The position numbers were made by a program, and so were the translations under genes. A stretch of DNA of 64,000 bases from Bacteroidia bacterium (GTDB taxonomy: Bacteria; Bacteroidota; Bacteroidia; Palsa-965). Location of the stretch: positions 284,198 through 348,197 of the forward strand of contig JALONL010000006.1 of the NCBI GenBank assembly GCA_025454955.1. Direction: 5' to 3'. The notes beneath the pieces are model-generated. The model was not told the origin of the DNA. It did not search any database and saw nothing but the letters and a program-made list of their open reading frames with translations. Shown here piece after piece: positions 5,676-59,093 of the stretch (position 1 is its first letter; every line of letters starts with the position of its first letter).

Positions 5676-5689
5676 CTTGTATTAAGTGT

Positions 5690-6091: not shown

Positions 6092-6564
6092 CAGCGCGAA
6101 ATATCTACCACTTCAAACTGCATCATGCCCGAAGGAACTGTTACATCGCACACATCGCCCACCTTGCGGCCAAGAAGTCCTTTGGCAATGGGCGAGTTGA
6201 TGGATATTTTGCCCGATTTAAGATCGGCTTCGTTTTCGGGCACCAGCGTGTAGCTCATCCTGGCGCCATTCTTGGTGTTTTTAACCGTCACTTTACAAAG
6301 TATCAGCACTTTGGAAGTGTCGAGCTGGCTTTCATCCACAATGCGGGCATTGCTTACCAGTTCTTCCAGTTTAGAAATTTTGAGCTCCAGCATTCCCTGG
6401 GCATCCTTGGCTGCATCGTATTCGGCGTTTTCAGATAAATCGCCTTTATCGCGGGCTTCAGCAATCTGACGGGAAATGCTCGAACGCTCTTTGGTTTTCA
6501 GAAAATGCAATTCGTCTTTCAGCTTGCGCAGACCCTCTTCGGTAACATAAGTAATTTGTGACAT
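6091..6564 (-). CDS. greA: Transcription elongation factor GreA
   Basis: A 157-aa ORF. MSQITYVTEEGLRKLKDEL...GDLSENAEYDAAKD... is the canonical GreA coiled-coil plus FKBP-like C-domain. Its start overlaps the HIT stop. Confidence 0.9.
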   Translation of the reverse strand: MSQITYVTEEGLRKLKDELHFLKTKERSSISRQIAEARDKGDLSENAEYDAAKDAQGMLELKISKLEELVSNARIVDESQLDTSKVLILCKVTVKNTKNGARMSYTLVPENEADLKSGKISINSPIAKGLLGRKVGDVCDVTVPSGMMQFEVVDISR

Positions 6565-36325: not shown

Positions 36326-36927
36326 CCGGCAGTTTGAACGGTTTGATTGACATTGCGGATGAGTTCCACAAACTGCTGATCGAAGAACCAGATGAATTCG
36401 GGAGTAAAATTCATCTCCTGGGTGATGAAGCTTGATTTAAAATTAATGGCGAATGTGTCGCGGTAAATCTGATTTCGTAAAAACCCGCGCAGTGCTTCCC
36501 CGCTCATTCGCTGCAACTGAGGCACATCGCCATAAATTTTCACATTCATGCGGTTGGCAAATTCGGTAACCACCGAAGCCGAAATGATATTATCCATTTC
36601 AAGCAGAATGGCATCCTGCATTTCGGCATTTCCGGCCAGGGCTGCGGGCAGGGCGGTCTGGTACAAATGCCCGGCTTCAGAATATGAGAAAACAAGGCAG
36701 CAGGTGCCCGGCAACTCGCCTTTTACGTGCGTAATAAGCAGGCAGACATCTTCCTTGTCATTCACCGGAAAATCGTCGAGTTCGGAAGCCTGTCGTAAAC
36801 GAAAATCCGACTCATCCACACGAATTTCCTTCTTCATGATTGCACTCATCGACACGGCAGCGCGGCCAAGACCGGCACGCGCCATCTGCATGGCGAAAAG
36901 AAATTCGGGAGTAGAAAACGACATCAT
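36322..36927 (-). CDS. CheC/CheX-like chemotaxis phosphatase-domain protein (tentative)
   Basis: A 201-aa ORF inside the che operon, with a weak CheC-like E..N segment (LLEMDNIISASVVTEF). The assignment rests mainly on context. Confidence 0.4.
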   Translation of the reverse strand: MMSFSTPEFLFAMQMARAGLGRAAVSMSAIMKKEIRVDESDFRLRQASELDDFPVNDKEDVCLLITHVKGELPGTCCLVFSYSEAGHLYQTALPAALAGNAEMQDAILLEMDNIISASVVTEFANRMNVKIYGDVPQLQRMSGEALRGFLRNQIYRDTFAINFKSSFITQEMNFTPEFIWFFDQQFVELIRNVNQTVQTAG

Positions 36928-36939
36928 ATTCAGAGGCGA

Positions 36940-38652: not shown

Positions 38653-38669
38653 GAAAATTTATTGACCTG

Positions 38670-39047
38670 TTAAGCCGGCAAGGCATTCATTACTTTGTTT
38701 ACGGCAGCAGTGAGGCTTTCGGAAGTAAACGGCTTCACAATGTAATCGGCCGCACCCAGCGTCATTCCTTCGCTGATTACCGACTCCTGCCCTACTGCAC
38801 TGATCATAATTATCTGCGCCCTGATATTTTCTTCCTGCTTGAGTACTTTCAGAATATCAGTACCAATCATATCGGGCAGAATATTATCGAGCGTAATCAG
38901 ATCGGGATCAAGTTCAATGGCCAGATCAATAGCCGATTCGCCATTGGCCGCCTGCCCGGTTACTGTATATCCGGCAGCGATAAGTGCTTCGCTTATCATG
39001 GTTCGCATGTACAGCGAATCGTCAACAATAAGAACAGATTTCGACAT
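38670..39047 (-). CDS. cheY: Chemotaxis response regulator CheY
   Basis: A 125-aa ORF with VLIVDDS...DLITLD...DYIVKPF receiver-domain motifs. Confidence 0.9.
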   Translation of the reverse strand: MSKSVLIVDDSLYMRTMISEALIAAGYTVTGQAANGESAIDLAIELDPDLITLDNILPDMIGTDILKVLKQEENIRAQIIMISAVGQESVISEGMTLGAADYIVKPFTSESLTAAVNKVMNALPA

Positions 39048-39058
39048 CGTGTATGGGT

Positions 39059-39619
39059 TTAATCGTTTTGCATATTGAGTTTGTCCTGTATATCGGCTTC
39101 GGTGCGTACGAGGTGATTGAGGTGAAGCAACATAATTAACCGCGTACCGTCTTTCACCACGCCCGAAATAGCAGCCATGTCGAGCGACGAGTATTGCACA
39201 AAACCTGCCGCATCTTCAATCTGTTCTTCGTACACGTTAATGGTATCGGGCACTTCGTTTACAATTATGCCGGCTTTCACCGTTTCGTGTTCGAGCACCA
39301 GGGCATAGCGTTCCTGCAATTGCGTAGTTTTTTCGATTCCGAATTTTATTTCCGGATCGATTATGGCCAATATGTTGCCGCGAATATTTACCACGCCCAG
39401 AAAATAATCGGGCATTTGCGGTACGTGTGCAATTTTGGGGGCAGGCACAATTTCTTTGATCTTGTCGATAGACAGTGCGTACTCTTCGCGGCCAATTTTA
39501 AACACTACCAGCTGAATGCGGCGGCCGTTGGTTTCTTTTTCCTGAACTTCGGCGGCGGCTTCGCGCTTCACATCGTCGAGCGTGTAATGGCCGGGAGTAA
39601 TGGAGTTCGATGTATCCAT
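39059..39619 (-). CDS. cheW: Chemotaxis coupling protein CheW
   Basis: A 186-aa ORF with CheW-like domain features (…LVVFKIGREEYALSIDKIKEIV…, …GVVNIRGNILAIID…). Confidence 0.8.
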   Translation of the reverse strand: MDTSNSITPGHYTLDDVKREAAAEVQEKETNGRRIQLVVFKIGREEYALSIDKIKEIVPAPKIAHVPQMPDYFLGVVNIRGNILAIIDPEIKFGIEKTTQLQERYALVLEHETVKAGIIVNEVPDTINVYEEQIEDAAGFVQYSSLDMAAISGVVKDGTRLIMLLHLNHLVRTEADIQDKLNMQND

Positions 39620-39626
39620 GTCCGGC

Positions 39627-41582
39627 TCAGAGTTTAAATTTGCTTACACCGTCGAGCAGTTGCGTGGCTACATCGGCCAGGTCGCGGCTTGTGGCGGTCA
39701 CTTCGTTCATGCCAAGACTGAGTTCTTTCGACGAGGAGGCAATTTGTTCGGTGCCCGAAGCGGTTTCTTCGGCCACCACCACAATTTTCTCGATGTTTTT
39801 TACGGTCGATTGTATGGCCTGTTTCTGCGAGTTGGTGGCATCCACAATGCTGCGCGAGAGTGCGAGGGTTTCGCTGCTCATTTTCTCGATTTGCTGAAAC
39901 ACGGTTTCGGCATCTTTAGAAGCAGAGTTGCCGTTTATTACCGAACGTTCCATGGCATCAATGGCTTTGGAGGCCGAAATAATGTCTTTCTGCACTTCAC
40001 GGATTACCTTTTCAATTTCCACCGCCGAGCGGCGCGAGTCTTCGGCCAGTTTGCGTATTTCGTCGGCCACCACCGAAAAGCCGCGTCCTGCCTCGCCTGC
40101 GCGGGCAGCTTCAATGGCGGCGTTGAGGGCAAGCAGGTTGGTTTGCGAAGCAATGCCGGTAATAACGGTAAGTGCGCGTGTAATTTCTTCCGAGCGTTCG
40201 GTGAGCACGTTAATGGAAGCCGAAGACGAATGGGCCGAGCTTTGAATCTGCTGCATACTTTCCACCACCTTGCGCACAGTGCCTAAGCCTTCAGACGCAT
40301 TGGTCTTGCCCGTTTCGGCGGCCGACTGAATCAGTTCGGCCTTGGTGTTTACCTCATTCGATTCGCCGAGCACGGCATCAATAAGGCGGCTCGACTCGTC
40401 GGTTTGCTGAGCCTGTTGCTGTGTGCCTTCGGCCATTTGCTGTGTGGCTGAGGCCACTTCGCGGGTGGTGTTGCGCATTTGTTCGCCCTTGGTGAGCATT
40501 TCTTCGGCCGAAGAGGCTACCAGATTGGCCATTTTGGAAATGCGGTTGAGCAGTTGTCCCACATTATCGAGCGCATTATTGAGACCATCGCCCATGCGCT
40601 GCAATTCTTCATTATCGGTAATGCGCAGCGAAAAACGTTCGCGCAAATCGCCTTCGGCCATTTTATTTATCACGCGGCGTACTTCGTCGTTGGCTTTGTT
40701 GCGTTTTTCCACTTCCTCGTCTTTGGCCTTCAAACTCTTGCGCATCAGCCCCAGCGAGTTGTTGAGTTCAAGCATTTCGCCCGAAGTTTTGATCTTTACT
40801 TCTTCATCGAGATTGCCGCGGGCCACTTCATTTACCACCCGGTTTACTTCATGAATGGGTCTGATAATGGAACGCATAAGAATAAGTCCGAACACCACCG
40901 AAATGCCGAGCACCAAAAAAATGGCAATGGCCGTAAACGTGATGGTTTGTGCAAATGCTTCGGAAGATTCATCGCGAAGTATTTCCGATTTTTTCATAAT
41001 GGTTTCGCTCAGTGCTTCCATTTCCACGGCCAGCTTGTCGTAGGTAATTTCATATTCAGGCAAACGTGCTTTTACCATAAACTCCGCCATCGAATCGCCC
41101 GAAAAGGCAATTTTTACCAGTTCGTTGCTTACATCGGTATAAGATTGAAGCGCGGGCCTTACCGTGGCTAACTTGTCTTTTATTTCGGGCCCCAGGTCAA
41201 AAGCCGAAAGCCTGTCAATGGCCGACATGAAAGAACCCGTATGCAGGTTGAGACTTTCCCTGGTGTCTTTTACCTCATCGGCATTGGTTTCATCGGCCAC
41301 CACGGCACTAAGCACATCGGCCTTAATGGCATCGTGCGCCATGTCGGCTGTCATTTGCTGATAAATGGCACCGGATACATCCACGATACCATTTTTTGTT
41401 TTTTCTATCCGGCTCAAAGAGAAATAGGCATACACGCCCAGCGCAATAAAGAACAAGGCGTTTATTGCAATGATGAGTCCGACTTTTGTAATGATTTTCA
41501 TGGGGGGGAGTCTGTTGTTATTGGTGTGAAGTGTAGCGTGTAGTGTGTATATGCTTTTATTTTCTAGAAAGAAACTATACAT
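39627..41582 (-). CDS. Methyl-accepting chemotaxis protein (N-terminal TM sensor, HAMP, MCP signalling domain)
   Basis: A 651-aa ORF with two TM helices, a HAMP domain (…[21 protein letters not shown]…) and the highly conserved MCP tip (…[40 protein letters not shown]…). Confidence 0.9.
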
Positions 41583-46006: not shown

Positions 46007-46045
46007 CTCAAAACGCCGCTCTTTTCAGGGCGGCGTTTTTATTAT
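46007..46045 (+). terminator. Rho-independent terminator after the TonB-dependent transporter
   Basis: AAAACGCCGC-TCTTTTCAGG-GCGGCGTTTT followed by TATTAT. Confidence 0.65.
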
Positions 46046-46423: not shown

Positions 46424-47860
46424 ATGTACATCCACAATCATCCTTCAAACAGTCCGTTTCTGTATGAATCGGAAGGAAAATTTACCGCCGGTGCACTTGA
46501 GGCGTACAATGAATTGCTGCGAAACGAAACAGACTGGCTCGTGCGTGTAATGCTGTTGCGTTTCCCGAAATCGTCCAACGGCGGTTACGAATTTGCTTCG
46601 GAAGCAAACTGGGAACAACTGCCTCCGCCCGATTTGCGCGATGGCAAAGGTCCGTATGCCGCGCTGGTAAATGCGCTCGAACTTGGTGCCGAAGAACGTT
46701 TGCTGCTCATCCTCACGCTGGCGCGGCAAATGAGCAAGCACTCGCTCAAGGTGCTTACGGATATTCTGATGACTCAGGCAGAGTATCACGACGAAATTGG
46801 CTGTTACTTCGTTACACCCAACCGTTCGCTGGTGTTTACGCTCAATACGGTGCTTACGCTCATTGCGGGCAATCATGCAGGACGGCGCGGTATGGCGTTT
46901 ACCAAACTGGTGCAGGAAAGTAAATTGGTGCGTGAGCAGATTCTTGAATTTGAAACACCTACCAATTTCAGCATTCAGTTTGGCGAGGGCGAAAAAGCAC
47001 CGGTGCTGGCCAAAGAGTATGTCACATTTCTGCTCAGCGGAAAACCGCCACGTCCTGATTTTGGCGAGAATTTCCCGGCCAAATTGGTAAGCACCAATCT
47101 CGACTGGCATCACCTCGTGGTACAGAAAGCCACGCGCGACGAAATAAACTGGGTGGTGCAATGGATCAGCCACGGCAGGCCGTTTACCGAACGTGTGGGC
47201 AGCAGGGCAATAAGCAGTTTTCCGGTGTTGTTTTTCGGCCCTCCCGGCACGGGCAAAACACTGGCGGCAAAACTCATCGGCAAGCAGTTTGGCAAAATGG
47301 TATTTCGTATCGACCTCTCGATGATGGTGAGCAAATACATCGGCGAAACCGAAAAAAACCTCGCCCGCCTGTTTGACCGCGCACAGGGCAAAGACTGGAT
47401 TCTGTTCTTCGACGAGGCCGATTCGCTCTTCAGCAAACGCACACAGGTAAACGACTCGCACGATAAATGGGCCAACCTCGAAACCAGCTACCTCCTGCAG
47501 CGCATCGAAGAATACGACGGTCTCTGCATCCTCGCCACCAACCTGCGCGACAATATTGATGCCGCCATGCTGCGTCGTTTTCAATACACCATCCATTTCC
47601 CGCGTCCCACAGAGGAACTCCGCGAACAACTCTGGAAAAGCCTGCTGCCAAACGGCTATGAGTTCGACCAGCTCGACTTCCGCAAACTCTGCGTGCAGGA
47701 TTTAACCGGTGCCAACATATCCAACGTACTCAACCACGCCTGCCTCGCCGCCGAAGCCGAGGGGCGAACGGTGTTGAAGAACTCAGAAATTGTACAGTTC
47801 ATGGCACTGGAGCTGATGAAGGAAAGTCGTACACTGAAATCGACCGATCATATTAAGTAA
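46424..47860 (+). CDS. AAA+ ATPase of the eCIS-associated (Afp15/Pvc15-like, CDC48-type) family
   Basis: A 478-aa ORF. The C-terminal AAA domain has Walker A FFGPPGTGKTLAAKLIG, Walker B ILFFDEAD, sensor-1 ILATN and an arginine finger region. …MMVSKYIGETEKNLARLFDRA… is the hallmark stretch of this ATPase family. The N-terminal ~270 aa are of unknown function. Confidence 0.75.
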   Translation: MYIHNHPSNSPFLYESEGKFTAGALEAYNELLRNETDWLVRVMLLRFPKSSNGGYEFASEANWEQLPPPDLRDGKGPYAALVNALELGAEERLLLILTLARQMSKHSLKVLTDILMTQAEYHDEIGCYFVTPNRSLVFTLNTVLTLIAGNHAGRRGMAFTKLVQESKLVREQILEFETPTNFSIQFGEGEKAPVLAKEYVTFLLSGKPPRPDFGENFPAKLVSTNLDWHHLVVQKATRDEINWVVQWISHGRPFTERVGSRAISSFPVLFFGPPGTGKTLAAKLIGKQFGKMVFRIDLSMMVSKYIGETEKNLARLFDRAQGKDWILFFDEADSLFSKRTQVNDSHDKWANLETSYLLQRIEEYDGLCILATNLRDNIDAAMLRRFQYTIHFPRPTEELREQLWKSLLPNGYEFDQLDFRKLCVQDLTGANISNVLNHACLAAEAEGRTVLKNSEIVQFMALELMKESRTLKSTDHIK

Positions 47861-47892: not shown

Positions 47893-50800
47893 ATGTCGCA
47901 TCGCCGCAATTTATATTCCTATCACGACGACGATTATTTCAAAACCCCGCAGCAACGCGCCTCCGAAGCCGCCAACAAAGCACAGGCCGATGCCGAGATG
48001 GATTTTGAGTATAACACCTGGCCGCGTTTGCAGCAAAAAATGGACGCGGGTCTTACACTCACGAAATATGAGTTGTATGATACGCGCATGTTTGGCGGGC
48101 CGCTGCACCGGACAAAGACTTTTGCCTACGTGCGTGCGCAGCAGAATGCGGAGAAGCTGAGTGTGGCTGCGGCCGATTCGGCTGAGGAGAAACAGGCGGA
48201 TGCGGTGGCCAACGCCGTGGCCACTGGCGGCGAGGTGCAAACCACCTCTACTGCCTCAGGGAAAACCGAAAGTTCGTCGCTTACTGTTTCGCCGGAGTTT
48301 GAGGAAAAACTGCTGGCAGGTAAAGGCCAGGGCGAACCACTCAACAGTGCATTGCGTGGGGAGATGGAAAGCAAAATGAATGGCGATTTCGGTGATGTGC
48401 GTGTGCATACCGGTGCTGATGCAGCGGAGATGAGCGCGGAGATAAATGCGCGGGCGTTTACGCATGGGAAAGATGTGTACCTGGGCAGCGGGGAGAGTGT
48501 GGAGGATAAGGAGTTGATGGCGCATGAGTTGGTGCATACGATCACTCCGGGAAATATCATTAAGCGCAAAGGAATAAACGATCCGTTGAATTACGGACTG
48601 CACCCCGAAGTAAAACCTAATTTCTTAAAAGGCAAAACCCTGTTAATGGATGCCGACGGCGATGGTTATCAGGAATTAGAACTTGTATTATATCTCGATA
48701 AAGACAAGGTTTTACAATTACAGGTGCATCATCTCGATAGCGACGTGTGGACCAACCGGCAGCACTTCCAGTCAGATAAAGAAGCATTGGTGGTATTAAA
48801 CTTTCAGACTCTGGGTGCAGCACATAAAACCTCAAAATTTACGCCCAACGATACCGAACTGAATACAAATTATATCAATCAGTTCAAACTCTATGATGAA
48901 GTCGATCCGGATAAAAAATCATATCAGCTAAATTTTGGTGCCGATGTGAATTTCAGACAGAATGGACAATACCATGCTGCTTTGGGCCCACACAAAATTA
49001 CATTCACTGTTAACCCATCAAAAATAAAGAAGCGCAGTGAAGATATTTCGTTTACCGAAACACGAAAGGCCGAAGCATTATCAGGCCCAATATATACGTT
49101 TCAGGCAGGGCAGCAGGGCGATGAAATAGAACTGCAAATTCAACAGGATTTCGAAGCTGCCATTCCTCAGGAAATGATAGCACAGAACCGAACCTCGGCA
49201 TATTCCATTTATGGATATATGAAAAGGCTAAATGGAAAAATTGTCCGATGGACAGAGCCGGTAATGGTTTATGCCGTAAACAATCAAATGCCGGCTTCAT
49301 TAAATCCGGTATATCAGGATGAAAAACTCATAGAACTGGGCATATCCGGATCATTCCTGCCTGATATAACCATTCATTATTATACGCTCTCCGAAAAAAA
49401 CAAATTCTATCATAATCGAAAAATACAACTTCATTTTTCAGGCCCTGCATTGTTCGGCGGTAAAGACTTCAGATCATTTATCCTCGTTAATAATTTCCCC
49501 GTAGCCAATTCAAACTTCCGTGGGGAAGATGATTACCATTCACTTTTAGATTATGAAGCACCAGCCATGCTGAATAATCAGGGTAAACCGTTGTCGGTGG
49601 AAGAAGATATTGCAAAAACAGAGGCCATACTTCTGCAACTGATGCAGCGACTTGTTCTCGACGGGAGTATGAATGAAATGGTTTTTCTTTCCTGGAAAGA
49701 ATACCTCCTGTCAAGAACTGTTCTTGAGGTAGTAAAGAATGCTAAAGTAAATAGTGAAGAAGAAAAAGCGCAAAGAAATTCCATTATTTTCAACGCAGCC
49801 ATGAAAGCCGACGCGTTTGCGTACCAGCTCATGAGGGAAACGAAAGCTTATGGCTATGTGCTTTCAAACAGTTATCCATCAAAAACAATTATCGTCGGGA
49901 ACTGGTCTAAAGAAGAGAAAGAATTTGAAGAGTTACATGCTTTATTAGATAATTATGTATTGAATATTGCTTCACGGAATACCGGCAATACTCCACCCGA
50001 TTATATTCACGACATTACATCATCGCCATCTGCTCAGCCCTACAGTGTTCAATACCGCTTACCTACCGAAGAAGAATTTACAGCCTACGAAAAGAGCAAA
50101 AAACAAGAAACAGACAGTATAAGAACCAACCTGAGAAACGAAGCAAAGGCCGAAGGATTAAATGAAGCGCAACAGCATGATAAACTTGTGGGGTCATACT
50201 CACATTTTGCCACTTACCGCAACCAGTTAAAAGAAATTGAGAAAAAGCAGTACCTGCAAAAAATAAATGCCGTTTTCTATGGCACTACTCCCGAACATAT
50301 TAACCAGTTTAATACGTCGTCAAGTACAAATGCGGTGGCGGTGCCGCTGCCGATTTGGGTGTATGTGGAAAACAACGAATGGCATATTGTGGATTTAATT
50401 AATCCTCAACAGCCATTCAAAGCTGCAGTACCGTATTATTCAGAAAACGGGAGCAATCCGCCCGAAGCACTTTTCGAGCAGCTAAACCACGAAAAGCATT
50501 TGCCCAAAGGTTATATATACTATCAGATCGGCGACCAAAAGAAAGTGGTAATTACCCAGGGCGAACAAACACAGTGGTATGATATTTTGGGTTATATCGC
50601 ACTGGGATTGGGGTTTGTAGGATTAAGCATAGCTACTTTTGGAGCAGCACTGCCTGCCAAAATTGCCGTACTGGGCACCGTAGTAAGCTACGCCAGCATA
50701 ATTACCGGCGCACTGAGCACCGCCGGCGACATGTGGGACAGTTACAAACACGGGCAGCTTACCGATCAGACACTCATGCTCAATATGCTCGATCTGGCCG

Positions 50801-52770
50801 GAGCATTGCTGCAATTAAAAACATTGTCGATAAGCCTTCTGCTTCGTTCAGAAACTATGGCCGCAAAACTGCCCAAAGCATTGCAGGCAGCCAAATTGGT
50901 TTACATGCCGCTGAAAATTGGCGAATACGCCACCGAAGGCACAAGACTATTTATCATTACTGCCGATGCTGCCGAACAAATTACTCAGATCATAAATGCT
51001 CCGGGCGACGATGAAGCCAAAAAGCGGGCATTGGTTACACTACTCTCGCAAATGGCACTTTCGTTGAGCATGTACGTGCTCGACGTGAAAGACTATGGCG
51101 ATGAAGTAAACTTAGTGCGTAATGCCGGAAAAAAATCAGGAGCAACCACACATTCACCACATACCGAACCTGATATAAATATTAAGATAAATGAACTATC
51201 CGGCAATGAAAATGTGGGCAAATCGGTAGTGGAGGCGGCTGGCGAAACTCAGGAAGAAATTCTCGGCGGTGACTCCGAAACACCAGTCACTACGGCACAA
51301 CAACGTGTGACGTATGGAAAGGACGAAAAGGGTTTTTACCGTACCAATCTCGACCAGCCTCACATACAACAACGTATAACCGAAGCCGAGTTCTACAACG
51401 CACGGGTAAGCATTGCCAATGCGCAGGTCAAAAAAACAGGCAAAATCGAAAACCCCGCCAAGGTTTCGGTCGATGCGTTGTTGCTGCTTGTGGCCTTTGC
51501 CGATCTGCAAATACAAGCCGTGAATTATCCGGCAGGCATTCTCGCCGGTGTGTCCACCGCCACGCTGTTGCTCCGCAAAGGTATGCGGGGCATGATTGGC
51601 AAACTCAAAGCAAAGAACCCCGGCATCAGCGACAAAGAATTATTGGATGAACTTAAAAAGACGATTCACAGCGATGGGGAACTAAACCGTTCGTTGAAGG
51701 AAAAGAATTTTAACTCTATTGATGAGGTGGATTTTGAAATGCCCGATGGCTCGAAGAAAAAGTTTGACGAGATAGCGCAGGAAGAAATTGACCATTCAAA
51801 ATTGCCCGACGAGGAGCGTAAGAAGATTGAGGCCGAACAGGAGGCAGAGCTAAAACCTGAGCAAAAGGAAAAGATCACCACGGAGGACGAAACGGTAAAG
51901 CCGAAAGAGGAAACACCTGAGATAAAACCGGAAATTACGTCTAAGAAAAAGATTGAGTACTGGGCAGAGGATCAGCTAACGCATGTACCCGGCAACCCGG
52001 AGTACCTGAAAATTATGCTTAATGGCGATCCGAAGCAGATTATTACGCTCAAGCGGGAGAAGGATAAGGATTGGATTGTACAGAGAGGAACGAAAGAAGC
52101 GAACGATAATAATAAGTTGACGAATGAAGAGATTTTGGAGAGAGTGCCGGAGAAGTATCGTAAAAAAAGTGAGACAATAAATCCGAATGAGGATGTAACA
52201 CAGAATACCTCCAATGAGGTTGAGAATAAAAAATCTGAAATACAAAAAGACAATTCAGAAAAATTAACATCTAAAAAGGCTGAGACCGGTGAACCTCCTT
52301 TTGCAAAGAGGAAAACAATATTGAAAGTTGGAGAGCCAATACTTAATGGTAAAATAAACCGGGTGCGTGCTGGCGATGAGAAGAAAATTGTTATTATCGG
52401 ATTAGATATGAACGGGCATGTAATTCCAATTGCCAAAGAATTACAAAGTCAGGGATTTGACGTGGAAATTTTAGAGGATAATTTTCTAAATGGTCGTACA
52501 TTTGAAATTGATGGTAAACAATGGACAGTTACCGAGGCTTTTAATGATATGGTTGAAAATGATAAATACGATGGCATGAGAGGGTTAGATAATAAAATTT
52601 TGCCAGAGTTTTTAGATCAAATACCAATGTATAAGCTAAACGAACAATGGATAACAGAACATAAAACGTCTGGAAAAACGATTCTTGATGTTGGAGGGCC
52701 TGCTAACTCAAATAAAACAAGCACCTTCTATAATATGGAAATTAACTCAATAAATTGGAACACGCAATGA
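47893..52770 (+). CDS. Giant polymorphic-toxin-like protein (1625 aa): N-terminal DUF4157 zincin-like domain, long central region with TM helices, K/E-rich disordered linker, variable C-terminal (toxin) domain
   Basis: Residues ~150-215 (coordinates ~48340-48540) read RGEMESKMNGDFGDVRVHTGADAAEMSAEINARAFTHGKDVYLGSGESVEDKELMAHELVHTI. This matches the DUF4157 consensus (fG.DFs.VRvH.d..A...a..l.ArAfT.G.diyf........LlAHEL.Hv). Hydrophobic helices lie at ~50580-50740 (ILGYIALGLGFVGLSIATFGAALPAKIAVLGTVVSYASIITGAL). A ~147-aa charged linker, repeated twice more downstream, precedes a unique C-terminal ~190 aa. Confidence 0.8.
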   Translation: MSHRRNLYSYHDDDYFKTPQQRASEAANKAQADAEMDFEYNTWPRLQQKMDAGLTLTKYELYDTRMFGGPLHRTKTFAYVRAQQNAEKLSVAAADSAEEKQADAVANAVATGGEVQTTSTASGKTESSSLTVSPEFEEKLLAGKGQGEPLNSALRGEMESKMNGDFGDVRVHTGADAAEMSAEINARAFTHGKDVYLGSGESVEDKELMAHELVHTITPGNIIKRKGINDPLNYGLHPEVKPNFLKGKTLLMDADGDGYQELELVLYLDKDKVLQLQVHHLDSDVWTNRQHFQSDKEALVVLNFQTLGAAHKTSKFTPNDTELNTNYINQFKLYDEVDPDKKSYQLNFGADVNFRQNGQYHAALGPHKITFTVNPSKIKKRSEDISFTETRKAEALSGPIYTFQAGQQGDEIELQIQQDFEAAIPQEMIAQNRTSAYSIYGYMKRLNGKIVRWTEPVMVYAVNNQMPASLNPVYQDEKLIELGISGSFLPDITIHYYTLSEKNKFYHNRKIQLHFSGPALFGGKDFRSFILVNNFPVANSNFRGEDDYHSLLDYEAPAMLNNQGKPLSVEEDIAKTEAILLQLMQRLVLDGSMNEMVFLSWKEYLLSRTVLEVVKNAKVNSEEEKAQRNSIIFNAAMKADAFAYQLMRETKAYGYVLSNSYPSKTIIVGNWSKEEKEFEELHALLDNYVLNIASRNTGNTPPDYIHDITSSPSAQPYSVQYRLPTEEEFTAYEKSKKQETDSIRTNLRNEAKAEGLNEAQQHDKLVGSYSHFATYRNQLKEIEKKQYLQKINAVFYGTTPEHINQFNTSSSTNAVAVPLPIWVYVENNEWHIVDLINPQQPFKAAVPYYSENGSNPPEALFEQLNHEKHLPKGYIYYQIGDQKKVVITQGEQTQWYDILGYIALGLGFVGLSIATFGAALPAKIAVLGTVVSYASIITGALSTAGDMWDSYKHGQLTDQTLMLNMLDLAGALLQLKTLSISLLLRSETMAAKLPKALQAAKLVYMPLKIGEYATEGTRLFIITADAAEQITQIINAPGDDEAKKRALVTLLSQMALSLSMYVLDVKDYGDEVNLVRNAGKKSGATTHSPHTEPDINIKINELSGNENVGKSVVEAAGETQEEILGGDSETPVTTAQQRVTYGKDEKGFYRTNLDQPHIQQRITEAEFYNARVSIANAQVKKTGKIENPAKVSVDALLLLVAFADLQIQAVNYPAGILAGVSTATLLLRKGMRGMIGKLKAKNPGISDKELLDELKKTIHSDGELNRSLKEKNFNSIDEVDFEMPDGSKKKFDEIAQEEIDHSKLPDEERKKIEAEQEAELKPEQKEKITTEDETVKPKEETPEIKPEITSKKKIEYWAEDQLTHVPGNPEYLKIMLNGDPKQIITLKREKDKDWIVQRGTKEANDNNKLTNEEILERVPEKYRKKSETINPNEDVTQNTSNEVENKKSEIQKDNSEKLTSKKAETGEPPFAKRKTILKVGEPILNGKINRVRAGDEKKIVIIGLDMNGHVIPIAKELQSQGFDVEILEDNFLNGRTFEIDGKQWTVTEAFNDMVENDKYDGMRGLDNKILPEFLDQIPMYKLNEQWITEHKTSGKTILDVGGPANSNKTSTFYNMEINSINWNTQ
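51717..52157 (+). repeat. Copy 1 of a ~440-bp direct repeat (encodes the K/E-rich pre-toxin linker) inside the giant gene
   Basis: TCTATTGATGAGGTGGATTTTGAAATGCCCGATGGCTCGAAGAAAAAGTTTGACGAGATAGCGCAGGAAGAAATTGACC... is near-identical to 53377-53820 and 54648-55095. Confidence 0.85.
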
Positions 52771-53270
52771 ATTCAGAAATCGTAAATTTAGCAAATAGAA
52801 TACAGATAAAAGTATTAAATCATTTCTCGTCAGTAATTGCAAATTTTGCTATAGAGATTGATGTTAAATACAGTGAGGAAAAAAACCTTCACATAATTAA
52901 CGATTCATTTAGACAAAGTAACTTTAGAATGGATATCTTCTTTCGAAGACCAAGTGCCAATAAAGTACTTCTCTTTACTTTTTATGATGGATATAATGGG
53001 AATAAGGAATTATCATATAAAATTGATTTTAAAATCTCGTCGCCGGGCAATAAACGTAACATCTATTCAGCAAAAGTACTATTTAAGCATTTGAATATTC
53101 CATACAGTTTCAATAATTTTTTTCTCCAACAAGGGGTAGATAATTTGTTTCTTCAAACTGATATTTTCTTAAAAAATATTGACGAATTGCTTGCTCTGCC
53201 AGAAATACAAACAATACTTTACACTGATGCTTGGATAGATATTCCGATAGATATGAGTGAGTACAAATAA
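52755..53270 (+). CDS. Putative cognate immunity protein of the resident C-terminal toxin domain (171 aa)
   Basis: Its start ATG overlaps the stop of the giant gene (CGCAATGAATTC, ATGA overlap). It is AT-rich, has no signal peptide and sits in the typical position of an immunity gene. Confidence 0.5.
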   Translation: MEHAMNSEIVNLANRIQIKVLNHFSSVIANFAIEIDVKYSEEKNLHIINDSFRQSNFRMDIFFRRPSANKVLLFTFYDGYNGNKELSYKIDFKISSPGNKRNIYSAKVLFKHLNIPYSFNNFFLQQGVDNLFLQTDIFLKNIDELLALPEIQTILYTDAWIDIPIDMSEYK

Positions 53271-53337
53271 TGGATAGGAATTTACATGTGAAGTCTCCCC
53301 GGAAACAGATAAATCTGAAAAATCAATTCACGATGAT

Positions 53338-54342
53338 GTGGAGTTAACCAAATCACTGCAAGAAAAAGGATTGACTTCTATTGACGATGTAGAGTTTGAA
53401 ATGCCCGATGGCTCGAAGAAAAAGTTTGACGAGATAGCGCAGGAAGAAATTGACCATTCAAAATTGCCCGACGAGGAGCGCAGGAAGATTGAAGCAGAAC
53501 AGGAGGAAGAGCTAAAACCAGAGCAAAACGAAAAGGCCACCACGGAGGACGAAACGGTAAAGCCGAAAGAGGAAACACCTGAGATAAAACCGGAAATTAC
53601 GTCTGAGAAAAGGATTGAGTACTGGGCAGAGGATCAGCTAACGCATGAACCCGGTAACCCGGAGTACCTGAAAATTATGCTTAATGGTGATCCGAAACAG
53701 ATTATTACGCTCAAGCGGGAGAAGGATAAGGATTGGATTGTACAGAGAGGAACGAAAGAAGCGAACGATAATAATAAGTTGACGAATGAGGAGATTTTGG
53801 AAAGGGTGCCGGAGAGGTATAGGAATAAATATCAGCCTAATGAAGTTAAATATAAAGATGGATGGACAAAGGAAAGAGTTCTTTCAAAGCCCAAAGGAGA
53901 GAGAGAGGTCCCTGAAATTTATTTATCAAATGATTACATTGAGAACCACTTGAGTATTTTTGAAAAAGAAGGCATTGTTTCTAGGATTGTTCTAAAGACA
54001 GCATATGATAAATATGGAATTGGTAAGCCGGATAAAGGGAAAACAGAGTTTGTCAGCTTGAAATCAGATATAGATAAACTCATTTCGGATTCAAATGGTG
54101 ACATCGAAATCTTATCAAGTGTACTTGGTGTCAGTAAAGAACAATTATCGGGTGGATTAGTACGTGTAGATTTTTATTTAAATTCACAGAATAAAGTTCA
54201 CATGCCATCAGGCAACGAGTTTGGTACAAATAGCCAATGGATTCCCGGTGGGAAATTGCCAACTGGGCAGCTTGAAGCAATCATTAAAACTGAAGGACTG
54301 ATTGTGAACGTAGATTACATTGTAAAAGACATAACATGGTAA
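53338..54342 (+). CDS. Orphan toxin cassette 2: linker repeat copy 2 fused to a different C-terminal domain (~175 aa); lacks the DUF4157/TM N-terminal part
   Basis: Residues ~14-160 are about 95% identical to the linker of the giant protein (SIDDVEFEMPDGSKKKFDEIAQEEIDHSKLPDEER...ILERVPERYR). The sequence then diverges completely (NKYQPNEVKYKDGW...IVNVDYIVKDITW). Confidence 0.6.
   Translation: MELTKSLQEKGLTSIDDVEFEMPDGSKKKFDEIAQEEIDHSKLPDEERRKIEAEQEEELKPEQNEKATTEDETVKPKEETPEIKPEITSEKRIEYWAEDQLTHEPGNPEYLKIMLNGDPKQIITLKREKDKDWIVQRGTKEANDNNKLTNEEILERVPERYRNKYQPNEVKYKDGWTKERVLSKPKGEREVPEIYLSNDYIENHLSIFEKEGIVSRIVLKTAYDKYGIGKPDKGKTEFVSLKSDIDKLISDSNGDIEILSSVLGVSKEQLSGGLVRVDFYLNSQNKVHMPSGNEFGTNSQWIPGGKLPTGQLEAIIKTEGLIVNVDYIVKDITW
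53377..53820 (+). repeat. Copy 2 of the ~440-bp direct repeat
   Basis: Near-identical nucleotide sequence to 51717-52157. Confidence 0.85.
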
Positions 54343-54569
54343 CAGAAATTTATTGTAAACCCTGGGATTTTACCTTATACCAAGTAAATAATGACTTGGT
54401 AATTAGTGTGGTTTTTTTTGGCTTAGTGGACTATCATAGAAGTTTTAGGATTGAAACTGGTACAGTTGATACCAGTAACTATGAATCCTTAGGAATTCTA
54501 TCTGAAAAAATTCGAAGAGCACCTGATGAGTACTCTGAGTCAGAAGTTAAACCAGCTATATTTTTTTAA
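54336..54569 (+). CDS. Small putative immunity protein for cassette 2 (77 aa)
   Basis: Its start overlaps the cassette-2 stop (CATGGTAA). It has a hydrophobic segment (LVISVVFFGLV). Confidence 0.35.
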   Translation: MVTEIYCKPWDFTLYQVNNDLVISVVFFGLVDYHRSFRIETGTVDTSNYESLGILSEKIRRAPDEYSESEVKPAIFF

Positions 54570-54639
54570 TGATTTTCGATTAATTGAAAAGAAATTTGAT
54601 TAATCGGATTTTTGATTCTATTTTCCTTTAATGAAAGGG

Positions 54640-55531
54640 CTCCACTTCTATTGACGATGTAGAGTTTGAAATGCCCGATGGTTCAAAGAAAAAGTTTGAC
54701 GAGATAGCGCAGGAAGAAATTGACCATTCAAAATTGCCCGACGAGGAACGTAAGAAGATTGAGGCTGAACAGGAAGCAGCGCTAAAACCTGAGCAAAAGT
54801 AAAAGACCACCACGGAGGACGAAACGGTAAAGCCGAAAGAGGAAACACCTGAGATAAAACCGGAAATTACGTCTGAGAAAAAGATTGAGTACTGGGCAGA
54901 GGATCAGCTTACGTATGAACCCGGCAACCCGGAGTACTTGAAAATTATGCTCAATGGTGATCCGAAACAGATTATTACGCTCAAGCGGGAAAAGGATAAG
55001 GATTGGATTGTAGAGTCAGGAACGAAAGAAGCGAACGATAATAATAAGTTGAAGGATGATGAGATTTTGGAGAAGGTGCCGGAGAAGTATAAAAGTAAAA
55101 AAAATGGGAATGAGTGGAAAAGCGTCCAGAAAATCAAGAATAAATACCCAGATGAAAAAATGCCTTCTGATGGTGTACTATATGGAATAGCTGAAATTAA
55201 AGACGGGCTAATCCAGTCTATTGGAAATAAGGGTAATAATTTTAATGAAATTGATTTTGTCGTAACAACAAAAGGCGAACTCATAATTGGGAAAAAACAT
55301 CATTTCCTAGGGAATGCCTTGGAAGTAGAAGCCGCTGGAACACTAAAAATTGTAAATGGGAAAGTCAAAAAAATAACAAACGCTTCAGGACATTATTTAC
55401 CATCTGTTGAAGAAACTCTTAACTTTGAAGCTGTATTCAAAAACTTAGGAATCAATACCACTAATACAGCATTAGAGATATATTATATCGACGGAAACAA
55501 ATTAAAATCAACTACAAAATTTTTGAAGTAA
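54640..55531 (+). pseudogene. Orphan toxin cassette 3: linker repeat copy 3 with an in-frame nonsense codon (TAA at 54799-54801, GAA in copies 1/2) fused to a third distinct C-terminal domain
   Basis: In GAGCAAAAG TAA AAGACCACCACGGAGGAC the third codon is GAA in the other copies (EQKEKITTED becomes EQK*KTTTED). The distal ORF 54938..55531 encodes the remainder plus a unique C-terminal domain (…GKKHHFLGNALEVEAAGTLKIVNGKVKKITNASGHYLP…). Confidence 0.6.
54648..55095 (+). repeat. Copy 3 of the ~440-bp direct repeat (slightly more diverged)
   Basis: It shares the TCTATTGACGATGTAGAGTTTGAAATGCCCGATGG... start and aligns to copies 1 and 2 throughout. Confidence 0.8.
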
Positions 55532-56046
55532 TGGAATACACAGAGTTAATTAATACTATTCATAAAGCAGATTTCAATATCAACAAGCATAATCTTTCAG
55601 CAATTGATATTGATAAAATTTGTGCTGTGCCTGATAAATTTGACTTTATGAAATCTCTTTTTGAAAATTTCGACTCCCGATTTTGCGAAGGATTACTGTT
55701 AACCTGTCCTTGTTTATGGACAAATTTCACTCTTAAAGATTGGGAAAAAATTATAGTTTCTATATCTCCAAGGGTTAAATTAAATGACAACATTACTTTT
55801 CATATAAATAATAATTCAGGATACGCAGATGTGATATTCATAAGACGATACTTCAATATAGACATCGAAAATTTAATTGAGAAATTACCTCAAATGCTTA
55901 GCGATGATAAGAAAAAAATAAGAGACTTTATTTCATTTTATGATGAAAAAATTTGCAAAAATAAAAATGAGATTACCGAAGACCTCAATGACTTCTACAA
56001 TATTTCGTTTGAGGAGTTAAGTGACTATGTAGCTCACATGAAATAA
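55531..56046 (+). CDS. Putative immunity protein for cassette 3 (171 aa)
   Basis: Its start overlaps the cassette-3 stop (GAAGTAATGG, TAATG overlap). It is cysteine-containing and AT-rich, with no signal peptide. Confidence 0.45.
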   Translation: MEYTELINTIHKADFNINKHNLSAIDIDKICAVPDKFDFMKSLFENFDSRFCEGLLLTCPCLWTNFTLKDWEKIIVSISPRVKLNDNITFHINNNSGYADVIFIRRYFNIDIENLIEKLPQMLSDDKKKIRDFISFYDEKICKNKNEITEDLNDFYNISFEELSDYVAHMK

Positions 56047-56070
56047 GATTTTAATTTATAATTCGACTTC

Positions 56071-56307
56071 ATGAATATTTCATTTGAAATAATATCGAAA
56101 GGCAGTTTGTTAGTTCATTACCATAACAAAACTGCTCTTATCAGCGGAGAACTTGTTTTTTCCCCGCCAGTATTTTATGCCGATCTATCTTCTTTAATTT
56201 ATTGGCAGCCTCCATATGAAATGGATGCAATATCTCAAAGCGAAAAAAGCGATATAATTTCGTTTTTAATAAGTCAAAATACAGGAACAAAAATTGTGTT
56301 TGATTAA
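56071..56307 (+). CDS. Small hypothetical protein (78 aa), candidate orphan immunity gene
   Basis: ORF in the AT-rich immunity island; no recognisable domain. Confidence 0.3.
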   Translation: MNISFEIISKGSLLVHYHNKTALISGELVFSPPVFYADLSSLIYWQPPYEMDAISQSEKSDIISFLISQNTGTKIVFD

Positions 56308-56401
56308 TAGTAATTGAGAAATTTTGATCGGAAAGTCTGGGGGTGAGTTGTAAATTTTCCTATAGTATCAGTTCGGTGAAAGTTAGTAGTTTTGAGCGTA
56401 G

Positions 56402-56935
56402 TTGTTTTTTGAAAGATTTCAATCTGATGCTCAAACAAAGATAAATATGCAAAACATAGACATAAAAGTAAATGAATGTCAATCAACACTAACCTCAGTT
56501 TTTACTAAAAACGAGGATAATTTTTCACATCATTGGAACATAAAAATTGAGGCTGGTCCCCATTCATTTTACTTAGAATTTTTGCAATTAGAAAACTCGC
56601 AGTCTATTTTTGATCTTTCGAATAAGTCATTTAGAATTAGCGATACAGATTTATTACAGTTGCAGTCCTGTTTCATCAATGATTCGGGGATTAAGATTGC
56701 GAATCAAATTCAAATTTCATTTGATGAATTTGATAGTGAAATAAGAAAAATCCATTCAAAAGTAAAGCTGAATTTTAATTCATATATCGTGAGTGTAGAA
56801 ACAGATATGTTATTTGCTGGATATAATTTTTATGAGGTTCCCGAAATCAATATAGAAAGGATTATTATCGAAAAAAAATTAGGTGAAATTAGAGTTCAAG
56901 ATATTGGCATTAATAATAGGCTATATAATTACTAA
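56402..56935 (+). CDS. Hypothetical protein (about 165 aa; likely start MQNIDIK at 56447), candidate orphan immunity gene
   Basis: ORF in the AT-rich island; no recognisable domain. Confidence 0.35.
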   Translation: MFFERFQSDAQTKINMQNIDIKVNECQSTLTSVFTKNEDNFSHHWNIKIEAGPHSFYLEFLQLENSQSIFDLSNKSFRISDTDLLQLQSCFINDSGIKIANQIQISFDEFDSEIRKIHSKVKLNFNSYIVSVETDMLFAGYNFYEVPEINIERIIIEKKLGEIRVQDIGINNRLYNY

Positions 56936-57042
56936 AATCCCCAACATTTCCTCAATGCTTTTCCTCACTTAAAATATTTATAATTCGACAACTATTGAAT
57001 AGATGAAGCCCAAAACAATCATTACATTTTATACTCAATAAT

Positions 57043-57489
57043 ATGAAATGTTTAACAATACTAAACAATCAAGAATCCAAGGTACAGCCAAGTGATATTG
57101 ACTACTTTGAAGAAAGGTATAAGATCAAAATTCCCGAAAAACTGAAAGACTTTTTTTTGTTATTTGGGGGCTCTAGAATCAAAGAGATGTATTATCATAG
57201 AGGTGAATCTTTGGATCAAGTTTGTGATATACTTTTAGTTAAGTCAATACAAGGAAAACCATCATGTGAGTCGATATATCAGGGACACCTATCTTATGGA
57301 GATATTGGCTTTATTCCATTTGCAATTGACTCCGGCGGCTGGGATTACAACGTATCTATAAACCCTGACACCTACGGCCAAGTTTGGGTTGATAAATTCG
57401 ACAGCGGCGAAGAAACCCCTTTTGAGTTTGTATGTAATTCCTTTGAAGAATTTATTGATGGGCTTACTGAGCAAGAAAAGGACTTTTAA
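57043..57489 (+). CDS. SMI1/KNR4 (SUKH-1 superfamily) immunity protein
   Basis: A 148-aa ORF. IDYFEERYKIKIPEKLKDFF...GG, IPFAIDSGGWDYNV and the C-terminal FVCNSFEEFIDGL fit the SUKH fold pattern. That pattern has an N-terminal ligand-binding helix, a central GG and [ILV]PFA.D..G..[FY] strands, and a C-terminal F..FL motif. Confidence 0.7.
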   Translation: MKCLTILNNQESKVQPSDIDYFEERYKIKIPEKLKDFFLLFGGSRIKEMYYHRGESLDQVCDILLVKSIQGKPSCESIYQGHLSYGDIGFIPFAIDSGGWDYNVSINPDTYGQVWVDKFDSGEETPFEFVCNSFEEFIDGLTEQEKDF

Positions 57490-57533: not shown

Positions 57534-58028
57534 TCAATACGGAAACAACGTCATAAACGCATCCATATCCTTCTCTAACTTCGTATCCACCGTAAAATGA
57601 TACAACCCCCGCGTCCACCCGAAAAACGCACTTTGCTCGTCCACAATTTTCACATAGCTCGGGTCGCGGCCGGTTACCAGTATGCGGGGTTTTACCCGTC
57701 CGTTGCTGGTAGCACCCGACACGATGAGGCGGAAACTGGTTTGCACTTCTTCCTGCGAAAGCGAGCGGCCAAACTGCATATAAATTTTTGTGGCGCCGTT
57801 CTGATAAATCACTGATCCGTCTTCGCCGCCCTTGGGGGGCATTACCGTGCCGCGTTTAAACGGGCCAACGCTTACGGGTAAGAGTTTGTTGAAATCGACA
57901 CCGCGGGGTTTGGGGCGTTTTTCTATGCCGTAGGGAGCCGGACCGCTTTGCTGCTGGGTTGAATACATGTTCAGCCCGGCCGCAACCAGCAACATAAAAA
58001 GCGTAAAAACAAACCTGGGTCTGAGCAC
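57534..58028 (-). CDS. Hypothetical secreted protein (about 155-165 aa)
   Basis: A signal-peptide-like N-terminus (…RPRFVFTLFMLLVAAGL). The probable start is the ATG at 57995 or the GTG at 58028. The 341-aa version in the ORF track overlaps ribF by about 500 bp and is rejected. Confidence 0.4.
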   Translation of the reverse strand: MLRPRFVFTLFMLLVAAGLNMYSTQQQSGPAPYGIEKRPKPRGVDFNKLLPVSVGPFKRGTVMPPKGGEDGSVIYQNGATKIYMQFGRSLSQEEVQTSFRLIVSGATSNGRVKPRILVTGRDPSYVKIVDEQSAFFGWTRGLYHFTVDTKLEKDMDAFMTLFPY

Positions 58029-58052
58029 GGGCCGTGTATTCCTGTTGAGCAA

Positions 58053-59093
58053 ATGCGGCTGTTGGGTGCAAGGGGGGGCAACGAGCGGCACACAAAAATG
58101 GTTATTTTTGGCGAAATACAAACACTTGATCGTTATACTGTTTATTTTGTGAAGATATACTCCCAAATCGCCGATTTTGTTCCCCCTCGTTTTCCTGTAG
58201 TTACCACCGGCACTTTCGACGGGGTACACCACGGGCACCGGCAAATTATTGACCGGCTCCGGGAAACGGCCCGCAAAAACGGCGGCGAAACCGTGCTGCT
58301 TACCTTTTTTCCCCACCCCCGCATGGTACTTTTTCCCGATCAGCAGCAGCTTTTGCTCAATACGCCCGAGGAAAAAAAGCAGCTTCTCGAAAAAGCCGGT
58401 ATCGACCACCTTGTTGTTCATCCGTTTACCCGTGAGTTTTCGATGCTTTCCTCCAAAGAATTCATCGAACAAATACTGGTAAACAAATTCAATACCAAAA
58501 AGCTGGTTATCGGCTACGACCACCATTTTGGCCGCAACCGCGAGGGCAGTTTCGATCATTTGCGCGAGTTTGGCCCGGTTTATGGCTTTGAAGTGGAAGA
58601 AATACCGGCCCAGGAAGTGGACAACGAAAAAGTAAGCTCAACCCGCATACGCAACGCCCTGCAAACCGGCGATGTACGCACCGCCGCCGCCTGGCTCGGA
58701 TACCGCTACCCCCTGAGCGGCACCGTGGTAAAGGGAAGACAGCTCGGACGCACCATCGGATTCCCCACGGCCAACCTTGTGCCCGACAATACGTATAAAA
58801 TAATTCCTGCCGATGGCGTGTATGCCGTTTTTGTGCAGCGCGGAAACGATACACTGCCCGGCATGATGAATATAGGTATGCGCCCCACCATTGACCAGGG
58901 CCTGAGCCGTACCATAGAAGTACACCTGCCCGGTTTCAGCGGCGATTTGTATGGCGAAACCCTGAAAGTGCTGTTTGTGGAACGCCTGCGCGACGAACAA
59001 AAGTTCGGTTCGATTGACTTATTAAAGGAACAACTTCATACCGACCGCCTCCGGGCCACGACCCTGCTGAGTAATGAAAAAACTGATCTTTAA
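58053..59093 (+). CDS. ribF: Bifunctional riboflavin kinase / FMN adenylyltransferase
   Basis: VVTTGTFDGVHHGHRQII (nucleotidyltransferase HxGH motif) and the C-terminal riboflavin kinase region (GTVVKGRQLGRTIGFPTANL…, …MRPT…). The true start is probably ~58100-58150. Confidence 0.9.
   Translation: MRLLGARGGNERHTKMVIFGEIQTLDRYTVYFVKIYSQIADFVPPRFPVVTTGTFDGVHHGHRQIIDRLRETARKNGGETVLLTFFPHPRMVLFPDQQQLLLNTPEEKKQLLEKAGIDHLVVHPFTREFSMLSSKEFIEQILVNKFNTKKLVIGYDHHFGRNREGSFDHLREFGPVYGFEVEEIPAQEVDNEKVSSTRIRNALQTGDVRTAAAWLGYRYPLSGTVVKGRQLGRTIGFPTANLVPDNTYKIIPADGVYAVFVQRGNDTLPGMMNIGMRPTIDQGLSRTIEVHLPGFSGDLYGETLKVLFVERLRDEQKFGSIDLLKEQLHTDRLRATTLLSNEKTDL

Follow-up and report, generated by a model that had tools for sequence, protein, structure and literature searches.

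A putative polymorphic toxin locus of an uncultured Bacteroidia bacterium, with orphan cassettes and a short run of orphan immunity genes

We analysed 64,000 nt of contig JALONL010000006.1 (positions 284,198 to 348,197; assembly GCA_025454955.1) from an uncultured Bacteroidia bacterium, a stretch that we refer to as the window, and focused on a run of small open reading frames (ORFs) towards its right end. The region 52755-57489 very probably forms the 3' part of a single polymorphic toxin locus, a reading to which we give a probability of roughly 0.85. The genes of the array follow each other in the order of a CDC48-like AAA+ ATPase, a 1625-aa toxin with the variable tip CT1, the small gene I1, the pairs CT2-I2 and CT3-I3, and the orphan genes I4, I5 and I6. 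A preliminary description had interpreted the region as an island of immunity genes placed behind toxin cassettes. Our account of the locus builds on its gene anatomy, its repeats, family memberships, the conserved adjacency of toxin and immunity genes, and the fold of CT2.

The array shares the hallmarks of polymorphic toxins (sensu Zhang/Aravind). A common block with 92-93% identity is followed by three unrelated tips, and an immunity gene lies directly 3' of each tip. The partners I2 and I3 co-occur with their tips elsewhere, and I1 is paired with CT1 by position only. Two stand-alone tip cassettes are homologous to the main gene (53338-54342 and 54640-55531). Moreover, CT2 and CT3 are each found on differing carrier or secretion architectures, and CT1 is found only on the shared block. 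The start/stop overlaps ATGA, ATGGTAA and TAATG, which the preliminary description took as a sign of translational coupling, can all be read from the sequence where it had placed them.

The shared block is about 465 nt long and occurs in three forward-strand copies, located in the main gene (51697-52167, residues ~1269-1425), in cassette 2 (53359/53360-53829) and in cassette 3 (54647-55109). They share 92-93% identity over stretches of 456-471 nt, and the sequences are unrelated directly after the block. In blastn comparisons, the main-gene copy is 93.2% identical to that of cassette 2 over 471 nt and 92.4% identical to that of cassette 3 over 463 nt, and a repeat search groups the main-gene block as family D1. 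The block ends with the motif ...EILERVPE(K/R)Y(R/K), and the GC content of its main-gene copy is 43.5%, versus 34% in the tip that follows. Orphan cassette 2 (53338-54342, +) is composed of the block and CT2 (53830-54342), and orphan cassette 3 (54640-55531, +) of the block and an intact CT3 (55110-55531). Both cassettes are promoter-less and lack the upstream ~1270 codons of the main gene. The cassettes of the preliminary description are real, as this putative recombination block of ~465 nt is common to them and the giant gene.

The same block is carried by a sibling locus, L001, in which a CT1-type tip sits in an orphan slot; tips thus occupy main and orphan positions in different strains. 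We notice that the L001 array ends, after its SUKH gene, with a fragment (L001 3637-3858) that is 84% identical to residues 1191-1264 of the main toxin, just upstream of the block, and is followed by unrelated lipoprotein-like genes. Resembling a truncated third cassette, the fragment shows that the homology can reach upstream of the 465-nt block.

CT2 is a predicted SPN-like NAD+ glycohydrolase domain of the ART superfamily. Its fold is similar to that of SPN, which is its closest structural relative, and the sequence identity between the two is only 16%. Neither Pfam nor NCBIfam contains a match to CT2, and a search of the PDB with the CT2 profile gave no meaningful match. Candidate catalytic residues of CT2 are invariant (R25, N129-E130 and E149). 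The domain is modular and is found on Rhs, PAAR, DUF4150, PT-TG, PT-VENN and DUF6861 proteins. Its partner I2 (54336-54569, +; 77 aa) overlaps the stop codon of cassette 2 (TAA, 54340-54342) within ATGGTAA. Homologues of I2 are located directly 3' of CT2 homologues in two independent loci, as a 79-aa ORF in L006 (40% identity, tblastn E 9e-15) and a 73-aa ORF in L004/L005 (31%, 1e-8). This synteny gives good grounds for regarding I2 as the putative cognate immunity gene of CT2. An 87-aa ORF that follows a CT2 homologue in Luteimonas (L008) was considered as a relative of I2 for a ‘GLVDY’ patch noticed by eye, and it was rejected when the profile gave only 1.8 bits.

CT3 has six homologues, which differ in having unrelated N-termini and share the invariant motif K-H...AAG...SGHY.P. 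I3 (55531-56046, +; 171 aa) overlaps the stop codon of cassette 3 (TAA, 55529-55531) within TAATG. Directly after CT3 homologues, we found I3 homologues in L013 (35% identity over 169 aa, E 7e-27) and L011 (25%, E 4e-11), and a further one follows the CT3 homologue on the truncated contig of L002 (phmmer 3e-10). The assignment of I3 as the putative cognate immunity gene of CT3 is therefore a good one, as it is for I2. Pfam and NCBIfam scans of CT1, CT2, CT3, I1, I2, I3 and I5 gave nothing, and neither did scans of their partners from the other loci. The most distant CT3 homologue, in L003 (ENA k141_457546, 1547-6144), precedes 11 small ORFs (52-136 aa), and the run includes a 93-aa fragment matching Toxin-deaminase (PF14424). 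L003 is another cassette or polyimmunity array on a different carrier.

CT1 (52168-52770, +) diverges from both cassettes right after the block. Its only homologue, with 76% identity, is the orphan cassette protein P0016 in L001. I1 (52767-53270, +; 167 aa) overlaps the toxin stop codon (TGA, 52768-52770) within ATGA; the start at 52755 belongs to a TTG-extended ORF, and both public annotations use the ATG at 52767. The CT1 homologue in L001 is followed, at the same position, by an ORF of equal length (167 aa, L001 1356-1859). This ORF was first taken as an I1 homologue (E 1e-13) and then downgraded, because the score stems almost entirely from the last 22 residues, to which the similarity is limited and of which 20 are identical (…QTILYTD.W.DIPIDMSEYK). 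The conserved tail sits in DNA that is common to both loci upstream of the next cassette. The mismatch could reflect either very rapid divergence of the immunity gene or replacement of the gene body with the tail kept in the inter-cassette homology. I1 is thus a weak candidate, read as an immunity gene by position and coupling only.

Three further small ORFs without a preceding toxin domain had been described behind the cassettes, and they are present, starting at 56071, 56447 and 57043 and separated by intergenic stretches of 24, 139 and 107 nt. With tblastn, no toxin remnant was found upstream of I4, I5 or I6. I4 (56071-56307, +; 78 aa) is a divergent Imm74 protein by transitive homology. 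On its own, it remains below the Pfam Imm74 cutoff (PF15603), scoring 18.6 bits where 27.1 are required; the match has E 0.0021 and spans profile positions 4-65 of 80. An exhaustive search returned 56 representative homologues, mostly of 76-85 aa. Among the 34 that were aligned, 27 match Imm74 at E <= 0.01 (best E 2.6e-14), and the invariant G26-E27 of I4 fits the published G[DE] signature. Transitive homology thus makes a good case for I4 as a putative member of the Imm74 family. Imm74 is the main immunity protein of Tox-ARC toxins and a member of heterogeneous polyimmunity loci, with G[DE] as its signature (PMC3482391); a Pfam scan detected no Tox-ARC domain in the window. Two long proteins, P0094 and P0098 (3750 and 1791 aa), also came up among the top matches of the I4 search. 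They are fn3-repeat cargo proteins of the type IX secretion system and were matched in 4-12 short stretches; we judged these matches to be a W.PP-type motif summed over repeats, and spurious for Imm74.

I5 (56447-56935, +; 162 aa) begins at the ATG at 56447, within a TTG-extended ORF from 56402. Its homologues P0092 and P0093 are 57-59% identical and start 1-3 nt after the upstream gene. In L009/L010, the I5 homologue directly follows a gene fragment that carries the same block and a CT3-related tip. This tip is distant from CT3 (46% identity over 71 aa) and has the motif AAG...SGHYLPS. In a third locus with an I5 homologue, the upstream gene encodes 267 aa and the gap is 3 nt. We consider I5 to be a good candidate for an orphan immunity gene. 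Just upstream of it, a 34-nt segment (56376-56409) has an inverted 85% match downstream of the I5 homologue (L009 1366-1399, L010 1255-1288).

I6 (57043-57489, +; 148 aa) had been recognised as an SMI1/KNR4 (SUKH-1) protein, and it passes the PF09346 gathering threshold, with 44.7 bits where 25.4 are required (E 2.6e-11) and a match that covers profile positions 2-124 of 125. A second match is to SUKH_6 (E 7.7e-9, 36.5 bits against 27). The cognate toxin of I6 is absent from the window itself. In L001, a SUKH homologue that is 57% identical to I6 starts 2 nt after a same-block cassette ending in a WHH nuclease (PF14414, E 3.4e-12), which links SUKH-1 to a polymorphic toxin there; nucleases and deaminases are the typical partners of this family. 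The combination of WHH with Imm-SUKH on PVC-metallopeptidase toxins has been published (PMC3482391). I6 is a strong candidate for a SUKH-1 immunity gene. The 3' third of the gene (57312-57470) is 90.6% identical at the DNA level to L001 3429-3587, and the 5' part is much more diverged, which suggests a recombination mosaic within the immunity gene.

The partners I2, I3, I5 and I6 track the tip and not the carrier, which is the comparative signature of cognate immunity. The claim that the small ORFs are immunity genes thus stands for I2, I3, I5 and I6 by homologue synteny and for I4 by its transitive link to Imm74, and for I1 it goes no further than position. Family membership by hidden Markov model search, as suggested in the preliminary description, was confirmed for I6 (SUKH) and, transitively, for I4; I2, I3 and I5, like I1, belong to no Pfam or NCBIfam family.

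The source metagenome-assembled genome (MAG) has gene calls, from NCBI or JGI, for all six small proteins, which share no relationship among themselves. The NCBI proteins are MCU0433083-93 (locus tags MUC87_065xx), and all genes of the island are annotated as ‘hypothetical’ except SMI1/KNR4 for the last gene and DUF4157 for the giant gene. The flanks have a GC content of ~51-52%, the blocks one of 42-44%, the tips one of 32-36% and the immunity genes one of 28-36%. Stop codons are frequent in the region because of this GC content of 28-36%, and at an estimated ~0.08 stops per codon an open frame of 167 codons has a chance of ~1e-6 per position. The short ORFs of 77 and 78 aa could occur by chance, and they are validated instead through their homologues. 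It is unlikely that the small ORFs are chance reading frames.

The array begins with two large genes. The first gene of the unit encodes a 478-aa AAA+ ATPase of the CDC48/p97-D2 type (46424-47860, +; Pfam AAA, E 3e-27), which is preceded by a terminator-like hairpin (46010-46039) and ends 33 nt upstream of the toxin gene. In PDB sequence searches, the ATPase is best matched by CDC48/VCP D2 domains (E 3e-35), and its placement with the CDC48-clade ATPases of extracellular contractile injection systems (eCIS) follows these best relatives, not a clade phylogeny. Zhang et al. associated CDC48-clade ATPases with PVC-type secretion (PMC3482391). The anti-phage ATPase IteA was the best NCBIfam match of this protein (E 9e-34) and was rejected as general AAA similarity, with 117 bits against a cutoff of 510.

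The main polymorphic toxin (47893-52770, +; 1625 aa) is built from an N-terminal DUF4157/eCIS-core domain, a long linker, the pre-toxin block and CT1. The zincin-like N-terminal domain (residues 149-217, nt 48337-48543) contains the motif HELVH and matches Pfam eCIS_core (PF13699) with E 5e-21 and 75.1 bits against a cutoff of 22, as expected of an eCIS/PVC effector. No further Pfam or NCBIfam match was found in the toxin. From the DUF4157 domain and the ATPase we infer a possible delivery by an eCIS; no contractile-injection structural genes are present in the window.

Based on these results, we propose how the locus may work. The ATPase, the toxin and I1 would be an expressed unit, with I1 translated by coupling at the ATGA overlap, and I1 would neutralise CT1 by binding to it, in the producer as well as in its kin. 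The blocks could recombine homologously and thereby swap CT1-I1 for CT2-I2 or CT3-I3 on the main gene. Such tip switching is supported by the CT1-type tip in an orphan position in L001 and by toxins matching I5 and I6 that are on the same block elsewhere. The cassette immunity genes and the three orphans would extend protection to toxins used by relatives. Most likely, I4-I6 protect against the toxins of related strains or are recent leftovers of lost cassettes, since the sibling homologues of I5 and I6 are coupled to same-block cassettes of CT3-like and WHH type. The preliminary description had viewed the excess of immunity genes as defence against non-kin toxins, and this is plausible because sibling loci carry matching toxins; relics of cassette loss, or producer self-protection as in SPN-IFS, are other possible roles of the surplus genes.

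The main reading, that of a polymorphic toxin locus, presumes toxicity, neutralisation, expression of the cassettes and orphans, recombination and the delivery route. A bolder reading, possible rather than probable, is that of a DUF4157/eCIS-type effector in a free-living Bacteroidia bacterium that would be used for kin-discriminating warfare between close relatives, with recombinational tip switching and with immunity that tracks sibling toxins.

Several results weigh against the main reading. CT1 has no Pfam or NCBIfam family and no PDB sequence match; CT3 likewise has no Pfam or NCBIfam family, a PDB search with its profile gave no meaningful match, and its structure model, with a predicted local distance difference test score (pLDDT) of 77, has no convincing fold match. 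Pfam and NCBIfam scans gave no family for I1 either, and its N-terminal 143 residues cannot be aligned to the L001 ORF (z = 1.9 versus shuffles), though the toxins are 76% identical. The ORF that follows the distant CT2 homologue in Luteimonas (L008) has no demonstrable relation to I2, and the partner ORF of the most distant CT3 homologue (L003) is unrelated to I3. The block of cassette 3 contains a nonsense codon (TAA, 54800-54802; GAA in cassette 2). Its tip could nevertheless be recombined into the main gene, because ~300 nt of homology remain downstream of the nonsense stop. Outside the window, the only known members of the block family are in L001 and L009/L010, a tiny sample at the population level; four scans of collections of metagenome and genome contigs, queried with the block both as one sequence and in aligned form, gave no relatives. 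The zincin motif is HELVH-TIT, so that HExxH is present and the Q of HExxHxxQ, the published PVC-metallopeptidase signature (PMC3482391), is absent. As to structural linkage with an eCIS, no sheath, tube or baseplate gene was found in the 64-kb window, and the sole gene resembling a contractile injection system component, CIS_TMP (3855-5429, -), is ~42 kb away with no injection-system cluster around it.

The immunity genes may also be real while cassette turnover has left I4-I6, and perhaps the cassettes, behind without a function, so that they would be no selected defence against non-kin toxins. The nonsense mutation already held by the cassette 3 block fits such an origin, and so do the truncated block fragment at the end of the L001 array, which shows decay in the family, and the lack of toxin remnants beside I4-I6, which implies that the deletions were clean. 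The island has no excess of promoter-like sites either; scans for sigma-70-type promoters and terminators stayed within the shuffle expectation, under models unsuited to Bacteroidota. However, I4-I6 are full length compared with their homologues (78 versus 78-81, 162 versus 163-164 and 148 versus 142 aa) and without frameshifts. In comparison with relatives, nonsynonymous differences (pN) in I5 and I6 are well below synonymous differences (pS), with dN/dS at ~0.15-0.19. This is consistent with a maintained coding function, but dS is saturated and the effect of the orphan state is not separated out by the comparison. A selective benefit is plausible as well, since the matching toxins are present on the same block in sibling loci. 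We therefore find the leftover explanation rather unlikely.

Alternatively, the immunity genes would protect only the cytoplasm of the producer before export, as IFS does for SPN, and the toxins would be aimed at eukaryotes or distant organisms. SPN, the closest structural relative of CT2, has in IFS a partner with exactly such a role (3pnt, the SPN-IFS complex). Moreover, the known targets of eCIS are mostly eukaryotic cells, and many PVC toxins lack immunity genes (PMC3482391, PMC8213781). However, this explanation does not account for the toxin-less I4-I6 or for silent cassettes with kept immunity genes, and the CT2, WHH and Imm74/Tox-ARC modules occur on type VI secretion system (T6SS), Rhs and PAAR carriers that are used between bacteria. 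The orphans argue against producer self-protection being the whole story, and we consider this alternative unlikely. It is very improbable that the small ORFs are other accessory factors, such as loading chaperones, adaptors or type II antitoxins, or that the 77-78-aa ORFs are chance frames: four of them lack a Pfam or NCBIfam family and antisense ORFs of 60-126 aa are also present in this AT-rich stretch, but I2, I3, I5 and I6 co-vary with the tip and not with the carrier or secretion route, as immunity proteins and not adaptors would, I4 and I6 can be assigned to named immunity families, homologues of the 77- and 78-aa ORFs are conserved, and at 28% GC it is very unlikely that 160-170 codons stay open by chance.

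In enterobacterial Rhs and CdiA arrays, the main gene is followed by promoter-less modules of C-terminal tip and immunity gene that keep a conserved upstream coding stretch. The retained stretch permits recombinational tip switching, and each tip is tightly coupled to its immunity gene. For Rhs, contact-dependent inhibition (CDI) and T6SS systems, it is textbook knowledge that toxin arrays come with orphan cassettes and a surplus of immunity genes. The present locus resembles them in its main gene and in its promoter-less modules with a retained conserved block. In contrast to them, its carrier is neither an Rhs/YD-repeat protein nor a filamentous haemagglutinin, its delivery route differs, and the demarcation is a lineage-specific block instead of PxxxxDPxGL or VENN. 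The architecture of the locus, in which orphan cassettes and a small polyimmunity tail accompany a polymorphic toxin system, is thus already known.

The tail is like polyimmunity or acquired interbacterial defence clusters in being a run of unrelated immunity genes without cognate toxins (Zhang et al., 2012; for orphan immunity genes of Bacteroidales, PMC12247911). Unlike these clusters, it comprises only three genes, is contiguous with its own toxin array and does not lie on a recombinase-associated mobile island. The CT2-I2 pair differs from SPN-IFS of Streptococcus pyogenes (PDB 3pnt): CT2, with its 16% identity and no sequence-level match in PDB or Pfam, is a modular tip on many carriers, and the 77-aa I2 has no detected relation to IFS.

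In 2012, Zhang et al. described PVC-metallopeptidase toxins as polymorphic (PMC3482391). The present locus has in common with PVC/eCIS toxins the N-terminal DUF4157, a very long linker, a variable C-terminal toxin and an adjacent CDC48-related ATPase (PMC3482391, PMC8213781), and the WHH/Imm-SUKH pairing recurs here in the sibling locus L001. In contrast, most described PVC/eCIS toxins are without adjacent immunity genes, whereas this locus has a full set together with orphan cassettes and orphan immunity genes; it also lacks nearby eCIS structural genes and the conserved zincin Q. Many eCIS-associated toxins have no immunity genes (PMC3482391; PMC8213781), which Geller et al. (2021) called ‘one intriguing mystery’. 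The locus is among the minority of eCIS-type toxins that have them, in an unusually complete form.

Our findings provide a clean example of a DUF4157 effector with a complete organisation of toxin, immunity and orphan genes, which argues for interbacterial use of this delivery class in Bacteroidia. They add four synteny-backed toxin-immunity pairings without a Pfam model, including a widespread tip predicted to be an SPN-like NADase with a small putative inhibitor, and give direct evidence, from comparison with sibling strains, that the toxins matched by orphan immunity genes are carried there on the same scaffold. Several toxin and immunity families of the locus are not yet in Pfam. If the reading as kin warfare is true, the locus would be a natural case that answers the puzzle of ‘missing immunity genes’ for antibacterial eCIS toxins, and the new families outside Pfam would be CT1/I1, the CT3 family with I3 and I5, and the SPN-like NADase with its 77-aa inhibitor.

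The genes flanking the locus are ordinary chromosomal ones, encoding TonB-dependent receptors, a che operon, ribF and the ATP synthase beta subunit, and no tRNA or integrase was found at the island borders. The first item to the right of the island is a 341-aa ORF without a family (57534-58559, -), which lies antisense to the start of ribF (58053-59093, +) and is probably no real gene. Further to the left, two very large ORFs (6755-10837, -, and 12290-16393, -; 1360 and 1367 aa) have essentially no Pfam match and adjoin a 1215-aa TonB-dependent receptor.

The CIS_TMP-like gene (locus L015) matches the tape-measure family PF19268 strongly and over its full length (E 1.9e-76). GreA and HIT are encoded upstream of it, and downstream lie genes for a 486-aa TPR-like protein (2058-3515, -), a 511-aa P-loop ATPase of the Sll1717 family (437-1969, -; NCBIfam E 1.2e-44) and PriA. 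An eCIS operon at the left end of the window, as the CIS_TMP match had suggested, was rejected on account of these neighbours. A complete chemotaxis set is located at 35450-41582 (-), with an MCP containing HAMP, CheW, a CheY-like receiver, CheA and CheR; to our knowledge, flagellar chemotaxis is usually lacking in the lineage of this MAG. A DDE transposase (27611-29167, -; DDE_Tnp_1_6 and DUF772) marks an insertion sequence element ~20 kb from the toxin locus, away from its borders.

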